64,000 nt of DNA from an uncultured Fidelibacterota bacterium (GTDB lineage: Bacteria > Fidelibacterota > Marinisomatia > Marinisomatales > UBA1611), in contig CAJWHW010000001.1 in NCBI GenBank assembly GCA_913040915.1, positions 1 to 64,000 of the forward strand, in the 5' to 3' direction. Positions 1 through 6,000 of the stretch are shown one piece after another. The stretch's first letter is position 1; every line of letters begins with the position of its first letter. A program made the position numbers.

Positions 1-3000
1 GACTCCGCATCCCCCTTACCTCGGATTACCGCCTGAACTTAGGGTTCACCCACATTGAAAGGTTACCGGATTGGGACAAGCGGTATTGGGCTGGTCATCC
101 AGGATTTACACTGGGGCTTGATATGGCTGTTCCAAGAGCACCCAGACGCAGATTAGAAGTAGGACCATCCGGCCCAACTAATTTGTATGGGCCTTCAGGA
201 GTTGCGCCTGGGATGGAAAATGTACCGTTACATCGGGACTCCACAATAACTATGGCTAATATCGCCGTTGAAACTCTACGAGATTCCATGGCACTAATGA
301 ATAATGAAATGAGAAATCTTTTAGTCCGATTATCGGCAATGGAACAAAATTCTAAATTTTTGACTGATTCATTGAATTCATTACAGTTAGAAACAAATGT
401 TTCAGAAAAAAATATGAATGAAGCATTAAGACATTTATCTAAGTCATTGAGATACTTTTATGCTGGAGATTACCGGGAGGCTTTGAAAGAAGTAGACCTG
501 GCTTTAGAATTAAATCCTAATTTGGCGTTAGCCTATGCCCGCAGAGGGTCAATCTATTATAAATTAGGGGATGTGCAGAGAGCTACTATTAATTGGAATT
601 TAGCACTACGATTGGATCCAGAGTATACAGACGTGAGGAATATTCTAAAAGCTCTACATGAAAATAAAATAAAATCAGCAAGTTTGAACGAGGAATAATT
701 TTATGGATATTGCTCTAATTATTGGCGTTGTACTAGGAATGGTTTTTATGATAGGCAGTATTGCCTATGCATTATTTGTTGAGGGTGCCGCAGGTGGTTT
801 TGGCAACTTTGTCTCCATTCCAAGTTTTGGAATTGTATTTGGAGGTATGTTGGCATCAGTTATGGTTGCTTTTCCAATGTACCACGTTGCTGCGCTTGGT
901 AAAGCTATAGGAGCTGTACTAAAACCTGCAGATGATAAAATGGGACCTTTAGTAGATGAAGCATGTGAAATTGCTGAATCTGCCCGAAAAGGTGCTGCTG
1001 ATCTTGAAAAGGCTGTGGATACCATTAGAACTTATTTCTTTAAAGATGGTGTCCAAATGGTTGTAGATGGCTATTCACTAGAAGAAGTAACTGAAATTAT
1101 GGAGACTAGAATTGAATATCGTGAAAAACGCGAAAAGGTACAGACTGACATGCTAAAAGCAATGGGTGACTTATCTCCTGCATGGGGCATGGTCGGTACT
1201 TTGATAGGCTTGGTCCTGATGTTGGCGGGTTTTGGTGGTGAAGGTGGAGCGGATAATTTAGGTGGGGGTATGGCAGCGGCTTTGATTACTACTCTTTATG
1301 GTGCTGTATTTGCAAATTTATTTTTTCTTCCTATGGCTCAAAAAATGGGAAATAAAACGACACAAACATCTATGTCAGCATGTCTATTGGTAGAGGCTTC
1401 CAGACTCATTCATCAAAAAAAACACCCTTTAATTGTTCGAGAAAAGTTGAATTCCTTTATTCCCCCTTCGGAGTGGAAACGGGAGTAATCTAAATGGCTA
1501 TGACACCAGGTGAAAAAAAGGCCTTTGGCAAAGGTTTTGAAGAAGGGGTAAACTCAGTAGAAGAGGGCTTACCGGGTTGGTTTGGTACTTTTGCGGACAT
1601 GATGACACTTCTTTTTGCCTTTTTCGTACTTTTGGCAGCAATCTCAACCATGGATCCTGTTAAATTACAAGAAATGGCCAATTCACAGGGGAAGTCATTG
1701 GGGAGTAAAATCAAGGCTGAAGGTAAAGCAGAAGAAGAAGGTGAATTTGAGCCAATCGAAAATTTAGCCCAAATGAAAAAAGAGCTGCAGGAAGCCATAG
1801 AAGAAATGAAAAAAGAAAACCCTGCGGGTGATCCACCAATTGATATTCAGACTAGTTCAAAAGGGTTGATAGTTAATATCAAAGGAGACTTTGCATTCCC
1901 ATCTGGTAAAGCAGACATGAAAACTGAACTAAAAGGTTTAATGGATGAGGAGATAATTCCAAGAATATTAGCAAGCCCTTTTCAAGTTGAAGTTGCGGGG
2001 CACTCTGATGCTGACCCTATGCCTCCTAAATGGAAGAAGTTTTATGCCAGCAATTGGGAGCTTTCTGCTGCCCGTGGAGCAACTTGTGTAAGGTATATGA
2101 TAGAAAAAGGAGTACCTGCTCCCAGGCTTTTAGCTGCAGGTTATGGAGATTGGTATCCTAAGGGGTTAGATAGTATAAAAAAAGTTAATCCTATGTATAA
2201 TCCCTTAACATTGACTTGGGAAGATCCGGTTATAAGGACTGATAAAGATGGAAGGGAAATAAAAATGCCGACGGTAATGTCCTTAAATTCTAATAAAAAA
2301 CAAAAGGCTTTGAATAGAAGAATTCAAGTTACATTTATTAATCCTCCTCATCATGGAAAAGGACGTTCAGGTACCAGTTATGAGGAATAAAATTATTCAA
2401 CCCGTATTCATATGCGGTAAAAACACATACCAAGGAGTTTCACATGAATAAGGTGAAAACAAATAAAATATCCATTATTGGAGCAGTTATAGCGGTCACA
2501 CTGCTCATTGGGCAAGGAGGAGGGTACTTATCACAAAAACTGATGGTGGAAAATAATATTCGTGGACGAGTAAAAGATGCTTTGTCCAAAATAATTGATT
2601 CCCAAAAGTATGTTATCAATGTTGATGTGGAATTAGAAGTTCTGGATGAAGTAAATGAACAGATCACGGTTTTTTCTCAACGCGATACTGATAATCGGGC
2701 TCCAACAACACCTGCAGAAAAAACAGCAGATGCGCTTGTCAAAATTCAGAAAAAAATGGCGATGGAGACTCAACAATCAGAAGAAAGTTATTCAGTAGGG
2801 CTTCCAATTCCTGGATTTGAAGTAGATGTTACCAAACCTAAAGCTGATGTATCGTCTATTACTCAATCAACGCCTATATCCCCTAGAACAATGGAGCCAA
2901 TGGATCTTACGACAGGTTCTGATAAATCAGATGAAGAAATGGTGGATAAGGTACTGTCACGCAAGCGTCCTTCACGAGCGCAAGTGAAGCGTATGGATTT

Positions 3001-6000
3001 AACACTTATTCTTCAGGAAGGGGCAGCGCCTGAATTAATTGAAAATATTCGTCAGCTTGCAATGGCTGCATCTAAGTTTGATCGTAACCGCGGAGATAAA
3101 CTTACTATAATGACTGCCAGTTTTAAAGAGCGGAGAGACCAGCGCTCTGCTGAGCAGATTATGTTAAAAAATATTGCTGAAAAAATTGATCTTTTAGAGA
3201 AAAAACGAGTTGCTGAAAACACAGATTGGCGAGATGAAATACAAAAATATCGTGATGAAGAGACAGCTCGACGCCAAGAAGATAAATCTTTCTTTGAAAA
3301 ACAGCTTAACCAGATGGAAGAACAAGCAAGGGCAGAGGCCTATGCTCAAGAAAAGAAAGAAATGCTTCGACGAGATTCCTTGAAAGTAGCCAAACTGAAT
3401 AATGAAATTTCTGCATTGAAAGACATGCTAACTATTACACATGAAGAAGATGCTGAAAAGCAATCAAAGGTGGATTCCACCCGCTTTGCAATGCTGGATA
3501 ATGAGTTGCAAAGTCTTAGACGAATGCTGCTTCAAGCTATTTTAAAAGATTCTATAGAAGCTCAGCAGCAAGCACAGGCACAAATCGAATTAGAATTAGC
3601 ATCTAGAGAAGAAGAAAAAGCAAAGCGTGATTCATTAATTGAAGAAAAAATAATGGCACTTGAAGGTGTGCAAACAGAATTAGATGCACTACAAGCTGAG
3701 CGATCAGAAGGCTTAGGCACTTCCCAATTATTATTAATAGCTTTTGGACTTTTATTAATAATTCTTATGGTGGCACTTGTTTTTGTTATGAACCGTAATA
3801 AGCAACAAGCGCCTATGCCCCCATGGATGTATCCACCACCACCACGTCAGCGCAGGAAAAGGCCGAAGAAAAAGCTAAACAAAGCAAAAAAAGAAGAAAA
3901 AGATGAACCAATAAAGGACGAAGTAAAAGAAGAGCCAAAAGAAGAGCCAAAAGAAACACCTGCCGCTATACAAGAACCGGTAGTGCAGCAAGCTACGGGT
4001 GATGATCCAAATGTATTAAAAAGCGAAATTGATGATATCCGAAAATCGGTTGTATCTATGAGTGTGGGGCAACCAGAAAGAACTGCATCCATTGTTAAAG
4101 AATGGTTAGAACAGCCGGCACCGGAGCCTCCTGCAGCACCTGAAACACCTGATGATGATGGCGCTGAAGAAGAGGACGAAGGCTAAGAAGAAGGAAAGAA
4201 ATTATGATCAATGACTATCACATGCTCTCAGGACTTCAAAAAGTAGCTATTCTTTTTTCTGTTGTAGGGGAAAGCCTTGCGCTTTCTCTAGTAAAAGGAT
4301 TGTCAAAAACAGAAGTTCGAAAAATTCGATCTACTTTGCGTGAAATGGGTTCTGTATCCTTCTTAGTGAAAAAAAGGGTTATGGAAGAATTTTATTTTGG
4401 ATTTTTAAGTGAACAGTTTAATGGCAATACCCAAGAAGATGGCCCTATCCAACCTTTTGAGTTTTTAACAGAATTGCAAGATGAGCAATTACTAGCCTTG
4501 TTAAACAAGGAGGACCCACCGGTTGTAGCAATGGTTTTAGCTCAACTTGAGCCCGAAAAAAGGATGCTAATTCTGGATAAAGTAGACCCAATTGAAAAAG
4601 GTCAAATTTTGATAGAATTAGGCTCGTTAGAAGATATTCCTTTGGAAGGCATAATTGAAGTTGCAGCTCGATTAAAGGAAAAATCTTCTTATTTACCTCG
4701 GACTACAGAATTTTCTCGTGGCGGCGCAAAAGAAATAGCTGATTTAATTGGTGAAATGAGTGCCGATGATGCTGAAAGGTATATGCAGACCTTACAAAAT
4801 GAAAATCCAGAGCTTTATAAAGAAGTTAAATTGCTTGTGCTTACCTTTGAAGATATTCTAGGCAATTTCCCAGATGGGATATTGCGTGACCTGATGAACT
4901 CTGTTGAGCTCGATGACTTGGCAATGGCAATGAAAGGAATTGATCAAGAAACTGTGGATAGGGTAATAGGAAATCTTCCACAAAAGAAACAGGCAATGTT
5001 TGAACCGGTTGAAGGGCCAAAGCCTAAACGCGAAGTTGATAATGCAAGAAAGATTATAGTGTCAGCTGCCAAACAGATGGAAAAAGACGGAGCATTTAAT
5101 TTAGCTGACATGATGGGTGGTGGAGAAATGGTCGAATAATTAAACAGTTTTCCTATAAATTAATTAAAGAGCCCCTTTTCAATGAATAGGGGTTTTTTAT
5201 AATAATTACTTTATAATTTTATATGTGAAAACTCGTAGAATTATTCAAATCATAGAAGGTGTAAAAACCACAGATGGGGCAGGTGTACACCTTACTAGAT
5301 TAATTGGTGCGCCAGATTTAAAGATGTTAGATCCATTTTTACTGTTTGACGAGTTTGGCACGGATAATCCAGATGACTATATTGCAGGATTTCCATCGCA
5401 TCCTCACCGAGGTTTTGAAACTATTACTTATATGTTAAAGGGCAAATGGGAACATAGTGATTCAAAAGGTAATAGAGGAATATTAACAGATGGATCTGTT
5501 CAATGGATGACTGCTGGGCGGGGTATTATTCATAGTGAAATGCCTATCCAAACTGATGGGCTGGCCCGAGGTTTCCAACTCTGGTTAAATCTTCCAAAAG
5601 AAAAAAAAATGATCGCACCAGCTTATCAGGATATCCACAGGGACCAGATCCCTACAGTAATGAAAGAAAGAGTCCGCGCACGGGTCATTTCAGGGCAATA
5701 TGAAGGGATTACTGGGCCAGGAAAATCACACACACCAGTACTCATTCTTGATATCCATTTAAAACCTAAAACAAAAACATTTGTTCATATTCCAAGCGGT
5801 TGGAATACTTTTGTATATATTTACAAGGGCGCTGTTTCCCTAAGTGAAATTTTGTCAAAAGGTCAACTAGCTGTTTTCACACAGGTAGGAGAAATGGTAA
5901 TACAAACAGAAGATTTAGAATCTAAAGTTTACCTTGTAGCAGGTGAGCCGCTAAATGAACCAGTATCCCGTGGTGGACCTTTTGTCATGAATACAAGTGG

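Follow-up and report, generated by a model that had tools for sequence, protein, structure and literature searches.

The window that we analysed is a stretch of 64,000 nucleotides from a metagenome-assembled genome of Marinimicrobia (Fidelibacterota, SAR406). It starts with an operon on the + strand, at 3-5139, that encodes a TPR protein, MotA, MotB, a FliF-like protein and a FliG-like protein, with intergenic gaps of 4-53 nt. The genome-wide survey's note had described this operon and had reported that the genome contains no other flagellar genes, and our results agree on both counts: the open reading frames and their Pfam domains are as described, and a domain search of the bin (85.3% complete, 2.3% contamination) gave 0 matches for FHIPEP (FlhA), FliP, Flg_bb_rod, Flagellin_N and FliMN_C. 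FliG_C has a single match in this genome. The genes of the operon and the parts of the FliF-like protein are as follows.

3..698, + strand: TPR-containing secreted protein, C-terminal 231 aa (TPR_2/TPR_1 from Pfam); 5' end open at the contig end
703..1488, + strand: MotA-type stator A subunit, 261 aa (Pfam MotA_ExbB)
1494..2390, + strand: MotB-type stator B subunit, 298 aa, with the transmembrane Asp, plug and OmpA-like peptidoglycan-binding domain (MotB_plug + OmpA)
2444..4186, + strand: FliF-like protein, 580 aa (PF08345 (YscJ_FliF_C), match to FliF structures by profile, AF2, Foldseek)
2444..2512, + strand: signal-peptide-like segment of the FliF-like protein, residues 1-23 (K/R-rich start, 15-residue hydrophobic core, small residue then Gln)
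2519..3124, + strand: RBM3/collar-like periplasmic ring-building domain, residues 26-227 (AF2, alignment with FliF, Foldseek)
3143..3709, + strand: periplasmic coiled coil of two long helices, residues 234-348 and 355-422 (AF2 pLDDT 84-92)
3719..3796, + strand: transmembrane helix, residues 426-451 (hydrophobic stretch LLLIAFGLLLIILMVALVFVM; helical in the AF2 model)
4007..4111, + strand: cytoplasmic tail helices, residues 522-556 (FliF-type putative FliG-binding motif ..IRKSVVSMSVGQPERTASIVKEWLEQ)
4204..5139, + strand: FliG-like rotor protein, 311 aa, with N, M and C domains (Pfam FliG_N/M/C)

MotA, MotB, the FliG-like protein and the RBM3 domain of the FliF-like protein are each recognised both by Pfam and by sequence searches against the PDB, and the FliF-like and FliG-like proteins are also recognised by Foldseek from their AF2 models. 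MotA matches MotA_ExbB at 1.6e-26, and its closest structures are C. sporogenes MotA (8ucs/6ysf, E 4e-35) and then PomA (2e-32). The 8ucs structure is of MotA in complex with FliG, and in the alignment its rotor-facing Arg and Glu match the loop ...saRKgaadlEka... of the window's MotA. MotB matches MotB_plug (4e-15) and OmpA (4e-8) and aligns with MotB and PomB structures at E values of 1e-22 to 1e-19. The plug is retained, and so is the Asp in FADMMTLL, which aligns with FSDTITLL. MotA, MotB and the FliG-like protein all fall under the equivalog cut-offs of NCBIfam; for MotA, the top matches that fall short are MotP and PomA.

The FliG-like protein has all three FliG domains (FliG_N 8e-14, FliG_M 1.6e-7, FliG_C 5.9e-22), scores 103 bits against TIGR00207 (cut-off 226.7) and matches T. 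maritima FliG (1lkv) at E 2.2e-20. Its AF2 model has a pLDDT of 79, and the top 13 Foldseek matches are all FliG. It is 23-25% identical to the flagellar FliG of the same phylum and is missing about 25 residues of the N-M linker relative to flagellar FliG. Across the family, neither K244 nor the Gly-Gly linker varies. Three clades have a full-length torque helix with R..EDE..PRR; that of the window's clade is shorter by 4 residues but still charged, with the charge pattern partly kept. The FliM-binding EHPQR motif is degenerate (EHPQ has become EDPP in the window's protein), as expected given that there is no FliM. The E value of about 2e-20, the EDPP change and the shortened torque helix had all been reported in the note, as had the conserved Asp of MotB, and all were reproduced.

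The FliF-like protein differs from what the note had proposed, which was a protein with both transmembrane helices of FliF and with a coiled coil in place of the RBM3/collar. The retained domain is the RBM3/collar (the S-ring domain) itself; RBM1 and RBM2 are missing, and the coiled coil is extra sequence that lies between RBM3 and the membrane helix. YscJ_FliF_C matches at 1.7e-5 (25.7 bits, with a cut-off of 23.8), a profile of the family matches FliF structures at E 5e-8, and the top 18 Foldseek matches of the AF2 model are all the FliF RBM3/collar, with a target-normalised TM of about 0.6 to S-ring structures. The domain aligns with residues 241-437 of Salmonella FliF. In the AF2 model it consists of a helix (26-47), strands (56-67, 70-76, 169-175, 178-191), a second helix (196-209) and a last strand (219-225), and the core has pLDDT >90; a disordered insert (residues ~82-168) carries a conserved PIPGF motif. 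The length of the coiled coil differs among clades. The two-membrane-helix topology is doubtful because the first of the two hydrophobic segments is probably a cleaved signal peptide: a regular expression for a small residue followed by Gln at residues 12-42 matches 39 of 41 family members. The protein may therefore be single-pass, unlike FliF. The tail motif ..IRKSVVSMSVGQPERTASIVKEWLEQ lines up with flagellar FliF tails from the same phylum (..VIEYAKSSPEDAAKLIRSWLTQ), and there is a weak alignment with the C terminus of Vibrio FliF. A predicted complex of the tail with FliG_N scored 0.48, as compared to 0.00 for the best control, which lends weak support to binding.

The order motA-motB-fliF-like-fliG was found in 40 of 52 related loci, while the other 12 are interrupted by contig ends and none deviates. 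The most divergent clade shows it in 20 of 24 loci. Upstream, two secreted proteins are conserved along with the module, and all of the accessory products have signal peptides or lipoboxes. The accessory set comprises the beta-rich/coiled-coil/TPR protein of about 455 aa, a conserved protein of ~340-390 aa, and lipoproteins that resemble CpoB in architecture, with an N-terminal coiled coil (a weak match to TolA_bind_tri) and TPR_6/YfiO-like repeats. The TPR gene lies directly upstream of motA in 40 of 40 uncut loci and in 22 of 24 divergent ones. The window's copy is truncated at the contig end; its full-length relatives are ~455-460 aa long and have a signal peptide, with a Gly-rich, beta-rich N-terminal domain of ~270 aa, a coiled coil and a nearly invariant C-terminal TPR region. 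The module genes are under purifying selection (dN/dS of 0.05 for MotA, 0.07 for MotB, 0.14 for the FliF-like protein and 0.15 for the FliG-like protein). RNA from the module is represented by contig fragments in metatranscriptome libraries, which could include DNA carry-over.

We surveyed 201 genomes of the phylum, with E<1e-40 as the threshold for the FliF-like gene and with FlhA and rod domains as flagellar markers. The FliF-like gene is present in about 130 of these genomes, FlhA in 48 and rod domains in 51. By hand cross-tabulation, about 98 genomes have the module without either marker, 32 have the module and a marker, and 20 have a marker only. Most of the ~98 are >90% complete, and a closed, single-contig genome (G029) has the module and one FliG, with neither FlhA nor rod domains. 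At this threshold, 71 of the 201 genomes gave no match to the module, among them every one of the 13 in the 1-Mb family f3; the module is therefore dispensable. The note had reported no FlhA in the 8 genomes sampled from the window's order, but the order is not wholly free of it: FlhA is over the cut-off in 3 of the order's 64 genomes, and the module is present in 47. The note had also reported two FliG genes in flagellated genomes, and we found this in 4 of 4 examined (G134, G010, G004 and G178), each of which has a further FliG and a further MotA within its flagellar cluster. Flagellated members have their own fliF, fliG and motA, and the module is located away from the flagellar cluster. 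Its architecture (no RBM1/2, an added coiled coil, a shorter FliG N-M linker) is alike in flagellated and non-flagellated members.

Given its gene content, homology, folds, conserved motifs, distribution and purifying selection, we think it likely that the operon encodes a non-flagellar rotor-stator module that is driven by ions, reaches into the periplasm and consists of paralogues of the flagellum's torque-generating core. The note's reading stands, and has gained support, insofar as the module is conserved, non-flagellar and coexists with flagellar genes; its account of the FliF-like anatomy does not. The OmpA-like domain of MotB would tether stator units of the MotA5B2 type to peptidoglycan; these units would conduct H+ or Na+ via the conserved MotB Asp and push against the charged ridge on the C-terminal domain of the FliG-like protein. 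The N-terminal domain of the FliG-like protein would hold onto the cytoplasmic tail of the FliF-like protein, whose RBM3/collar domain is expected to oligomerise into an S-ring-like ring, which would turn, with the long coiled coil joining the ring to the membrane helix. With the export gate, rod, hook, filament and FliM/FliN switch all absent, the torque would act within the envelope, and the likeliest recipients would be the signal-peptide-bearing proteins encoded upstream. Some observations do not sit easily with a rotary module: besides the scores under the equivalog cut-offs, the shortened torque helix with its partial charge pattern in the window's clade, the possibly single-pass FliF-like protein and the 71 genomes without the module, two of the 24 divergent loci (L089 and L091) lack motAB between the FliF-like gene and the FliG gene. 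If we are correct, then abundant non-flagellated Marinimicrobia keep a torque core together with periplasmic partners, which points to an undescribed rotary machine of the envelope.

All four module proteins are homologous to the core of the flagellar motor (MotA5B2, the FliG ring and the FliF MS-ring). What they share with it includes the Asp, plug and OmpA domain of MotB, the rotor-facing Arg and Glu of MotA, the N, M and C domains of FliG along with its Gly-Gly linker and charged torque helix, and in FliF the RBM3/collar fold and the C-terminal putative FliG-binding motif. On the other hand, the module's genome lacks the rest of the flagellum (by the five families searched), and the operon additionally contains genes for secreted TPR proteins and beta-rich proteins. 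In the FliF-like protein RBM1/RBM2 are missing, a disordered insert sits at the collar, ~190 residues of coiled coil precede the membrane helix and the N terminus is probably cleaved, while the FliG-like protein is without the EHPQR motif and part of the N-M linker.

It is also conceivable, although we consider it unlikely, that the complex transduces force or acts as a scaffold in the envelope and does not rotate. MotAB would then pull on a FliG-like adaptor as TolQR, ExbBD or AglRQS do, and the coiled coil of the FliF-like protein would be a periplasm-spanning arm like TolA, TonB or GltG, for instance in outer-membrane tethering or division. GldLM/PorLM of the T9SS, TolQRA, ExbBD-TonB and ZorAB are 5:2 ion-driven motors with periplasmic outputs, and like the module they have a motor of the MotA/ExbB family in the inner membrane; they pass energy, as the module would, through a long periplasmic helix to partners associated with the outer membrane. 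The CpoB-like lipoproteins, the long helical region of the FliF-like protein and its possible single-pass topology would all suit such a complex, as would the scarcity of TolB_N (36 of 201 genomes, and hardly any in the window's order). However, the module is found in genomes with TolB as well as in those without, and its stator is of the MotA/PomA type with rotor-facing residues rather than of the TolQ/ExbB type. The domain on the periplasmic side is specifically the RBM3/collar, which builds the S-ring, and the FliG-like protein retains the charges of the torque helix and the Gly-Gly hinge. We know of no FliG-like or FliF-like rotor in the 5:2 motors, whose output is the B subunit or a TolA/TonB/GldM partner; in the module it is the FliF-like protein that supplies the long periplasmic element.

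That these are flagellar genes decaying after loss of the flagellum seems very improbable. There are flagellated members of the phylum (the 48 genomes with FlhA), and flagellar parts can be kept and used without swimming: Buchnera is reported to retain genes for basal bodies and type III export (PMC8109811), and Lysobacter, which is non-flagellated, to keep many flagellar genes (PMC9927559). But the module has no export part; it is the torque part alone, in a separate paralogous operon that is also found beside complete flagellar sets. A relic is contradicted by the low dN/dS, by open reading frames that are intact in all clades and by the coexistence with true flagellar paralogues, and the shared architecture and the co-conservation with non-flagellar secreted proteins argue against it as well, so on this point we concur with the note.

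We find it scarcely credible that the module is an accessory of a true flagellum, such as an extra rotor or a stator scaffold, and that genomes without a flagellum are just incomplete bins. Many of the genomes are indeed metagenome-assembled, and PflA/PflB and FlcA are TPR scaffolds for stators in high-torque flagellar motors; by description, these resemble the module's TPR proteins in being periplasmic and in being encoded with or acting on MotAB. But the TPR proteins of the module are found where there is no flagellum, and one of them is a fusion with a large beta-rich domain. The ~98 largely complete genomes without markers, the distribution in the window's order and the position of the module away from the flagellar cluster all speak against this idea.

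Finally, foreign DNA misbinned into Marinimicrobia genomes can practically be set aside: 4 of 76 related loci are titled as other groups (SAR86, Thaumarchaeota, Lentisphaeria and Gammaproteobacteria), but the other titles that name a group are all Marinimicrobia or Neomarinimicrobiota (the remainder being just "bacterium"), and two single-contig genomes (G029 and G134) carry the module, as do single-cell genome records with Marinimicrobia in the title. A search of 1.84 billion representatives found just 206 clusters of the FliF-like family, and one cluster-member name and the Atlas clusters with a recorded phylum are Fidelibacterota.

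The operon at 3-5139 consists of five open reading frames that run in one direction, with 4-53 bases between neighbors.

Open reading frames of the operon
3-698: 3' part of the TPR protein gene, open at the contig end; it corresponds to the C-terminal part of a protein of about 455-460 amino acids in relatives
703-1488: MotA
1494-2390: MotB
2444-4186: FliF-like protein, 580 amino acids
4204-5139: FliG-like protein, 311 amino acids

The family assignments made in the genome-wide survey's note (MotA, MotB, FliF-like, FliG-like, and TPR) are each reproduced by Pfam. The nearest NCBIfam models are MotP/PomA for MotA (best, MotP, 174 bits vs. 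a cut-off of 394), MotB/MotD for MotB (113 vs. 259 bits), and TIGR00207 for the FliG-like protein (103.3 vs. 226.7 bits), all well under the equivalog cut-offs; no NCBIfam model matched the FliF-like protein. Downstream lie a pirin gene, 85 bases from the FliG-like gene, and then a divergent PPDK gene. Because the genes 3' of fliG-like vary among clades, the module ends at the 3' end of fliG-like. A scan for promoters and terminators gave no signal beyond that of shuffled sequences.

We think that these genes probably encode the core of a non-flagellar rotor and stator, which is so far confined to one phylum. The survey's note had proposed a second, non-flagellar, ion-driven rotor-stator machine, and its main point is upheld by the spread of the module, by its presence as an extra set in flagellated genomes, and by its conservation. 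The ring, the binding, the rotation, and the output are what we infer.

The FliF-like protein differs from its earlier description, in which a coiled coil took the place of the third ring-building domain (RBM3) and its collar. Instead, RBM3 and the collar are retained, RBM1 and RBM2 are missing, and the coiled coil is added. (RBM1 and RBM2 surround the export gate in flagella, and RBM3 with the beta-collar forms the S-ring.) First, the protein scores 25.7 bits against PF08345 (RBM3/beta-collar; cut-off 23.8), and Pfam finds no match to PF01514 (YscJ_FliF, RBM1/RBM2). Second, a profile of 41 full-length members matches the FliF structures of Salmonella (6scn, E = 5e-8) and Vibrio (8z5s, E = 3e-7) across residues ~241-460, that is, RBM3 with the collar (241-437 in Salmonella FliF). 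Third, when the AlphaFold2 (AF2) model (mean pLDDT 73, domain core above 90) was compared to the PDB with Foldseek, the best 18 matches were all RBM3/collar or S-ring chains of FliF (E = 6e-7 to 4e-5). For chains that hold RBM3/collar alone, the target-normalised TM-score was about 0.6. RBM3 begins around residue 26, directly after an N-terminal hydrophobic segment.

Parts of the FliF-like protein in the AF2 model
Ring domain: helix 26-47; strands 56-67 and 70-76; disordered insert; strands 169-175 and 178-191; helix 196-209; strand 219-225
Long helices: residues 234-348 and 355-422
Membrane helix: residues 426-451
Disordered linker, rich in Pro and Lys: between the membrane helix and the tail helices
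Tail helices, two: residues 522-556

The survey's note had also given this protein the topology of FliF, with two transmembrane segments. The C-terminal one is clear. The N-terminal one is doubtful because it resembles a signal peptide that is cleaved off: Lys/Arg, a short hydrophobic segment, and then a small residue and Gln (found in 39 of the 41 members with a regular expression). Several accessory proteins of the operon show this pattern too. A preference for Gln after the signal cleavage site is known from Bacteroidetes. Across the 41-member alignment of the FliF-like family, and in secreted neighbors at three related loci (L004, L045, and L068), predicted signal peptides end with a small residue and Gln, which suggests that the Bacteroidetes-type preference may hold in this phylum too. 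In-frame stops were flagged in FliF-like reading frames, and recoding is ruled out, as the flagged stop is only the terminal codon.

The FliG-like protein has all three Pfam domains (FliG_N, FliG_M, and FliG_C) and is 23-25% identical to the flagellar FliG of the same phylum. In a sequence search of the PDB, it was matched to T. maritima FliG (E = 2e-20). The best 13 PDB matches of its AF2 model (pLDDT 79, Foldseek) are all FliG, and the modelled C-terminal domain matches FliG as solved together with MotAB (8ucs). Aligned to flagellar FliG, the family lacks about 25 residues of the linker between the N and M domains; within the family, G173 and G174 of the Gly-Gly linker do not vary, and neither does Lys244. 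The EHPQR motif of FliG_M binds FliM. Here its Glu is kept and the rest is degenerate (EDPP in the window, EQPR or ESPV elsewhere, or E[DQS]P[PRV] across relatives), as compared to EHPQ or ENPQ in the flagellar FliG of the phylum. The loss of this motif fits with the missing FliM. The torque helix is full length, with R..EDE..PRR, in the clades of G029 (a closed genome that has the module) and of the flagellated genomes G010 and G004. In the window's clade it reads QKKQAMFEP----VEGPKPKRE, which is four residues shorter and still bears K, E, E, and K/R. The charged residues of the torque helix that face MotA are K264, R281, D288, D289, and R297 in E. coli numbering. That charges facing the stator are kept would fit with a working contact between the FliG-like protein and MotA.

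The FliF-like tail may bind the FliG-like protein. The last residues of the FliF-like protein (GQPETASRIVKEWLEDE in the profile) weakly match the extreme C-terminus of Vibrio FliF, and the tail motif (..IRKSVVSMSVGQPERTASIVKEWLEQ) can be aligned to the flagellar FliF tails (..VIEYAKSSPEDAAKLIRSWLTQ) of three flagellated genomes, G004, G178, and G010. When we predicted the complex of FliG-like residues 1-82 with FliF-like residues 512-572, the score was 0.48, and the highest of three controls scored 0.00. This passes the mark, which 116 of 157 solved complexes and 2 of 215 mismatched pairs also reach, but only weakly (0.60 or less). Agreement between runs is at least 87% of contacts, with a pLDDT of 65 or more for the partner. 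Because a complex of the FliF tail with FliG_N has already been solved, the pass may reflect only memory or likeness.

The stator is of the MotA/PomA type. In the PDB, the best matches of MotA are flagellar MotA from C. sporogenes (8ucs/6ysf, E = 4e-35) and PomA (E = 2e-32), and the rotor-facing Arg and Glu of its cytoplasmic loop (R90 and E98 in E. coli numbering) align with those of flagellar MotA. MotB has the Asp-bearing transmembrane segment, the plug, and the OmpA-like domain.

The window opens inside the operon, and relatives have more genes 5' of motA. All of the proteins that these genes encode have a signal peptide or a lipobox.

Proteins encoded upstream of motA in relatives
Protein of ~455-460 amino acids: the window's reading frame 3-698 is its C-terminal part
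One or two coiled-coil/TPR lipoproteins of ~220-330 amino acids: CpoB-like architecture (TPR_6, YfiO-like, and a weak match to TolA_bind_tri)
Protein of ~320-390 amino acids (the ~387-amino-acid protein): CarboxypepD_reg/NOMO-like domain at its start in some clades

The ~455- and ~387-amino-acid proteins are strongly conserved, and no uncut locus in either of our sets of related loci lacks them. The C-terminal TPR of the former is nearly invariant. The latter is 43-52% identical where FliG is 32-45% identical, except at two loci, L085 and L096 (32-34%). Profile searches of the PDB gave only generic TPR and NOMO/transthyretin-like matches for the accessory proteins, and a search of the Atlas gave only Fidelibacterota clusters.

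In the model that fits these observations best, stator units anchored to the peptidoglycan would use an ion gradient to push a ring of the FliG-like protein, which would sit on the tails of a ring of the FliF-like protein. Because the export gate, the rod, and the filament are absent, the moving part would extend into the periplasm only, by way of the RBM3 ring and its coiled coils. The co-conserved secreted proteins would be its likely periplasmic partners.

The main rival is a force transducer that does not rotate, similar to the Tol or Ton systems. This would explain the CpoB-like neighbors and the long helices, but it leaves unexplained why a ring-building S-ring domain, a stator of the MotA/PomA type, and a torque helix are retained together. 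We reject the more specific proposal that the module is Tol-Pal or its replacement, as the stator is like MotA/PomA rather than TolQ and the presence of TolB_N is unrelated to the module: TolB_N is found in 36 of 201 genomes from the phylum with no pattern relative to the module, and profile searches did not find it in the window's own genome, nor in most of the order to which that genome belongs. The likeness to Tol-Pal is limited to the CpoB-like architecture of the neighboring lipoproteins.

A rotor-stator core without a flagellum is also what the genomes suggest. The window's own genome (1.86 Mb in 71 contigs, 85.3% complete) has no matches to FHIPEP (the FlhA family), FliP, Flg_bb_rod, Flagellin_N, or FliMN_C, and these same searches were positive in the four flagellated control genomes. 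So we agree with the survey's note that this genome lacks the export gate, rod/hook, filament, and FliM/FliN. Its one match to FliG_C is the module's own gene. Similarly, G029 (a single contig of 2.8 Mb) has the module with an intact FliF-like reading frame, one FliG, and no FlhA or rod domain.

Across 201 genomes from the phylum, we searched with the 41-sequence FliF-like profile, FHIPEP, and the rod domain. The FliF-like profile matched 135 genomes, 130 of them at E < 1e-40. Three of the five weak matches (G030, G022, and G049, as opposed to G122 and G128) come from genomes with FlhA, and these three may be true flagellar FliF. FlhA was above the cut-off in 48 genomes, and 51 have rod domains; the two sets largely coincide (union, 52). 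Of the 64 genomes in the window's order, 47 have the module and 3 have FlhA.

Genomes with the module (FliF-like match at E < 1e-40) and with FlhA or rod domains, cross-tabulated by hand from the three search tables
Module, neither FlhA nor rod: 98
Module, FlhA or rod: 32
No module, FlhA or rod: 20
No module, neither FlhA nor rod: 51

Flagellated members had been said to carry the module in addition to their flagellar genes, and we see this in all four of those that we considered: G134 (a single contig), G010, G004, and G178 each have two FliG genes, and one MotA in the flagellar cluster with another in the module. FliG_C scores are 137-146 bits for the copy in the flagellar cluster and 61-97 bits for the copy beside the FliF-like gene. 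Because the flagellar cluster has its own FliG and MotA, the module is not the flagellar rotor or stator of these bacteria.

Gene order is well conserved. In our first set of 52 related loci, all 40 with enough flanking sequence have the order motA-motB-fliF-like-fliG, with no departures; the remaining 12 loci run into the end of a contig. A second set, from a search with a 5-row alignment, holds 24 loci of the most divergent clade (20-28% identity in the FliF-like protein). Twenty of these have all four genes, two are cut, and two (L089:1-4612 and L091:1-9983) lack motAB, so that the FliF-like and FliG-like genes directly follow a TPR gene. The metagenome-assembled genome behind L090 and L091 has two copies of the FliF-like/FliG-like pair. 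Estimates of dN/dS were made by the Nei-Gojobori method for the window and 16 relatives (136 pairs per gene), and pairs were kept if dS was 0.05-2, which drops those that were saturated or too close.

Median dN/dS, with pairs kept
MotA: 0.05 (51 of 136)
MotB: 0.07 (23 of 136)
FliF-like: 0.14 (23 of 136)
FliG-like: 0.15 (34 of 136)

Contigs from three marine metatranscriptome runs, from three studies, contain pieces of the motA, fliF-like, and fliG-like genes, most with 0-1 mismatches; two pieces from run X3 diverge more (by 5 and 10 letters). These are no more than a hint of expression, as they may stem from DNA carry-over.

Four of the 76 related loci (L006, L049, L052, and L085) have titles from other groups (SAR86, Lentisphaeria, Thaumarchaeota, or Gammaproteobacteria). 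Because they are 29-79% identical to Marinimicrobia genes, they are probably mis-binned or mislabelled contigs. Apart from these four titles and one partial cluster member (Gammaproteobacteria), every source with a named group is Marinimicrobia/Fidelibacterota; an exhaustive search of 1.84 billion representatives found only 206 FliF-like clusters at E ≤ 0.001. The locus titles use Candidatus Marinimicrobia or Neomarinimicrobiota (SAR406 is another name for this group), and the name Fidelibacterota comes from a protein name and from Atlas clusters. That the module is a relic, a flagellar accessory, or a product of mis-binning is contradicted by its distribution in the phylum, by the extra set in flagellated genomes, and by its conservation and selection; the survey's note had already argued against a relic, and a module that is maintained beside a flagellum's own fliG and motA, with dN/dS of 0.05-0.15, bears this out.

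To our knowledge, FliG rings that are driven by MotAB are known from flagella only. In a search of open-access text, we found no account of FliG, a FliF-like protein, and MotAB as a module in the absence of a flagellum. Such a module is not mentioned in the passages that we read of the report on the cultured Fidelibacter multiformis, which is described as non-motile (PMC11652737), of a preprint on flagellar evolution (PMC13277936), or of a survey of metagenome-assembled genomes from oxygen-deficient zones that used fliG, fliM, and fliNY as motility markers (PMC10359470). A torque core that is conserved and selected on its own in ocean bacteria that are abundant worldwide and lack flagella would mean that a rotor and stator of this kind can be put to another use, which bears on the evolutionary modularity of the flagellar motor. 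It would also be a simpler natural system for studying torque generation and the assembly of the MS-ring with FliG, as it has no C-ring switch, export gate, or rod. More practically, scoring motility in metagenome-assembled genomes by fliG, fliF, or motAB can misjudge this phylum.

What might the output be? We can imagine the module as the drive of a rotary machine that spans the envelope and has not been seen before, in which MotAB turns a rotor of the FliG/S-ring type and so spins a palisade of 17-27-nm coiled coils, which would move the outer-membrane-associated TPR and beta-rich proteins and have some output at the surface or linked to secretion. This is speculative and we would not bet on it. 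If it were true, no earlier FliG-based rotor would be known to have an output other than the flagellum, and the module would be a natural "minimal rotor" for thinking about the origin of the flagellar motor. One example, just as speculative, would be a gliding-type motor or one that is coupled to the type IX secretion system (T9SS). In this phylum SprA is present, and GldM was matched in 0 of 201 genomes. Specifically, the window's own genome encodes SprA_N (G000:C25:30745-31917) and has no matches to GldL (TIGR03513) or GldM_1st (PF12081, the family searched for across the phylum), and no control genome was positive for either, so these negatives are unvalidated. Given these leads, along with TolB_N and the other sets of the MotA/ExbB type, the module might be tied to the T9SS or to surface movement.

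As for those other sets, a rhomboid protease gene on contig C4 of the window's genome is directly followed by a second orphan MotA/MotB pair (L056:1174-2833, + strand), with a MotA of 307 amino acids (MotA_N and MotA_ExbB) and a MotB of 244 amino acids (plug and OmpA). MotA_ExbB reading frames of similar length to this MotA are found in G029, G010, G178, and G004; the one in G029 lies 8 kb downstream of its module and is followed by an OmpA-domain gene. The only Ton/Tol-type match to MotA_ExbB in the window's genome is in an ExbB-ExbD-ExbD-TonB operon at 20876-22924 (- strand). Finally, the window encodes a protein of 1006 amino acids (8805-11825, - strand) that has an N-terminal signal peptide and consists almost wholly of short repeats rich in G..W/Y (...DG.W..WY.NG.K...), which resemble repeats of the MORN/YwqK type.
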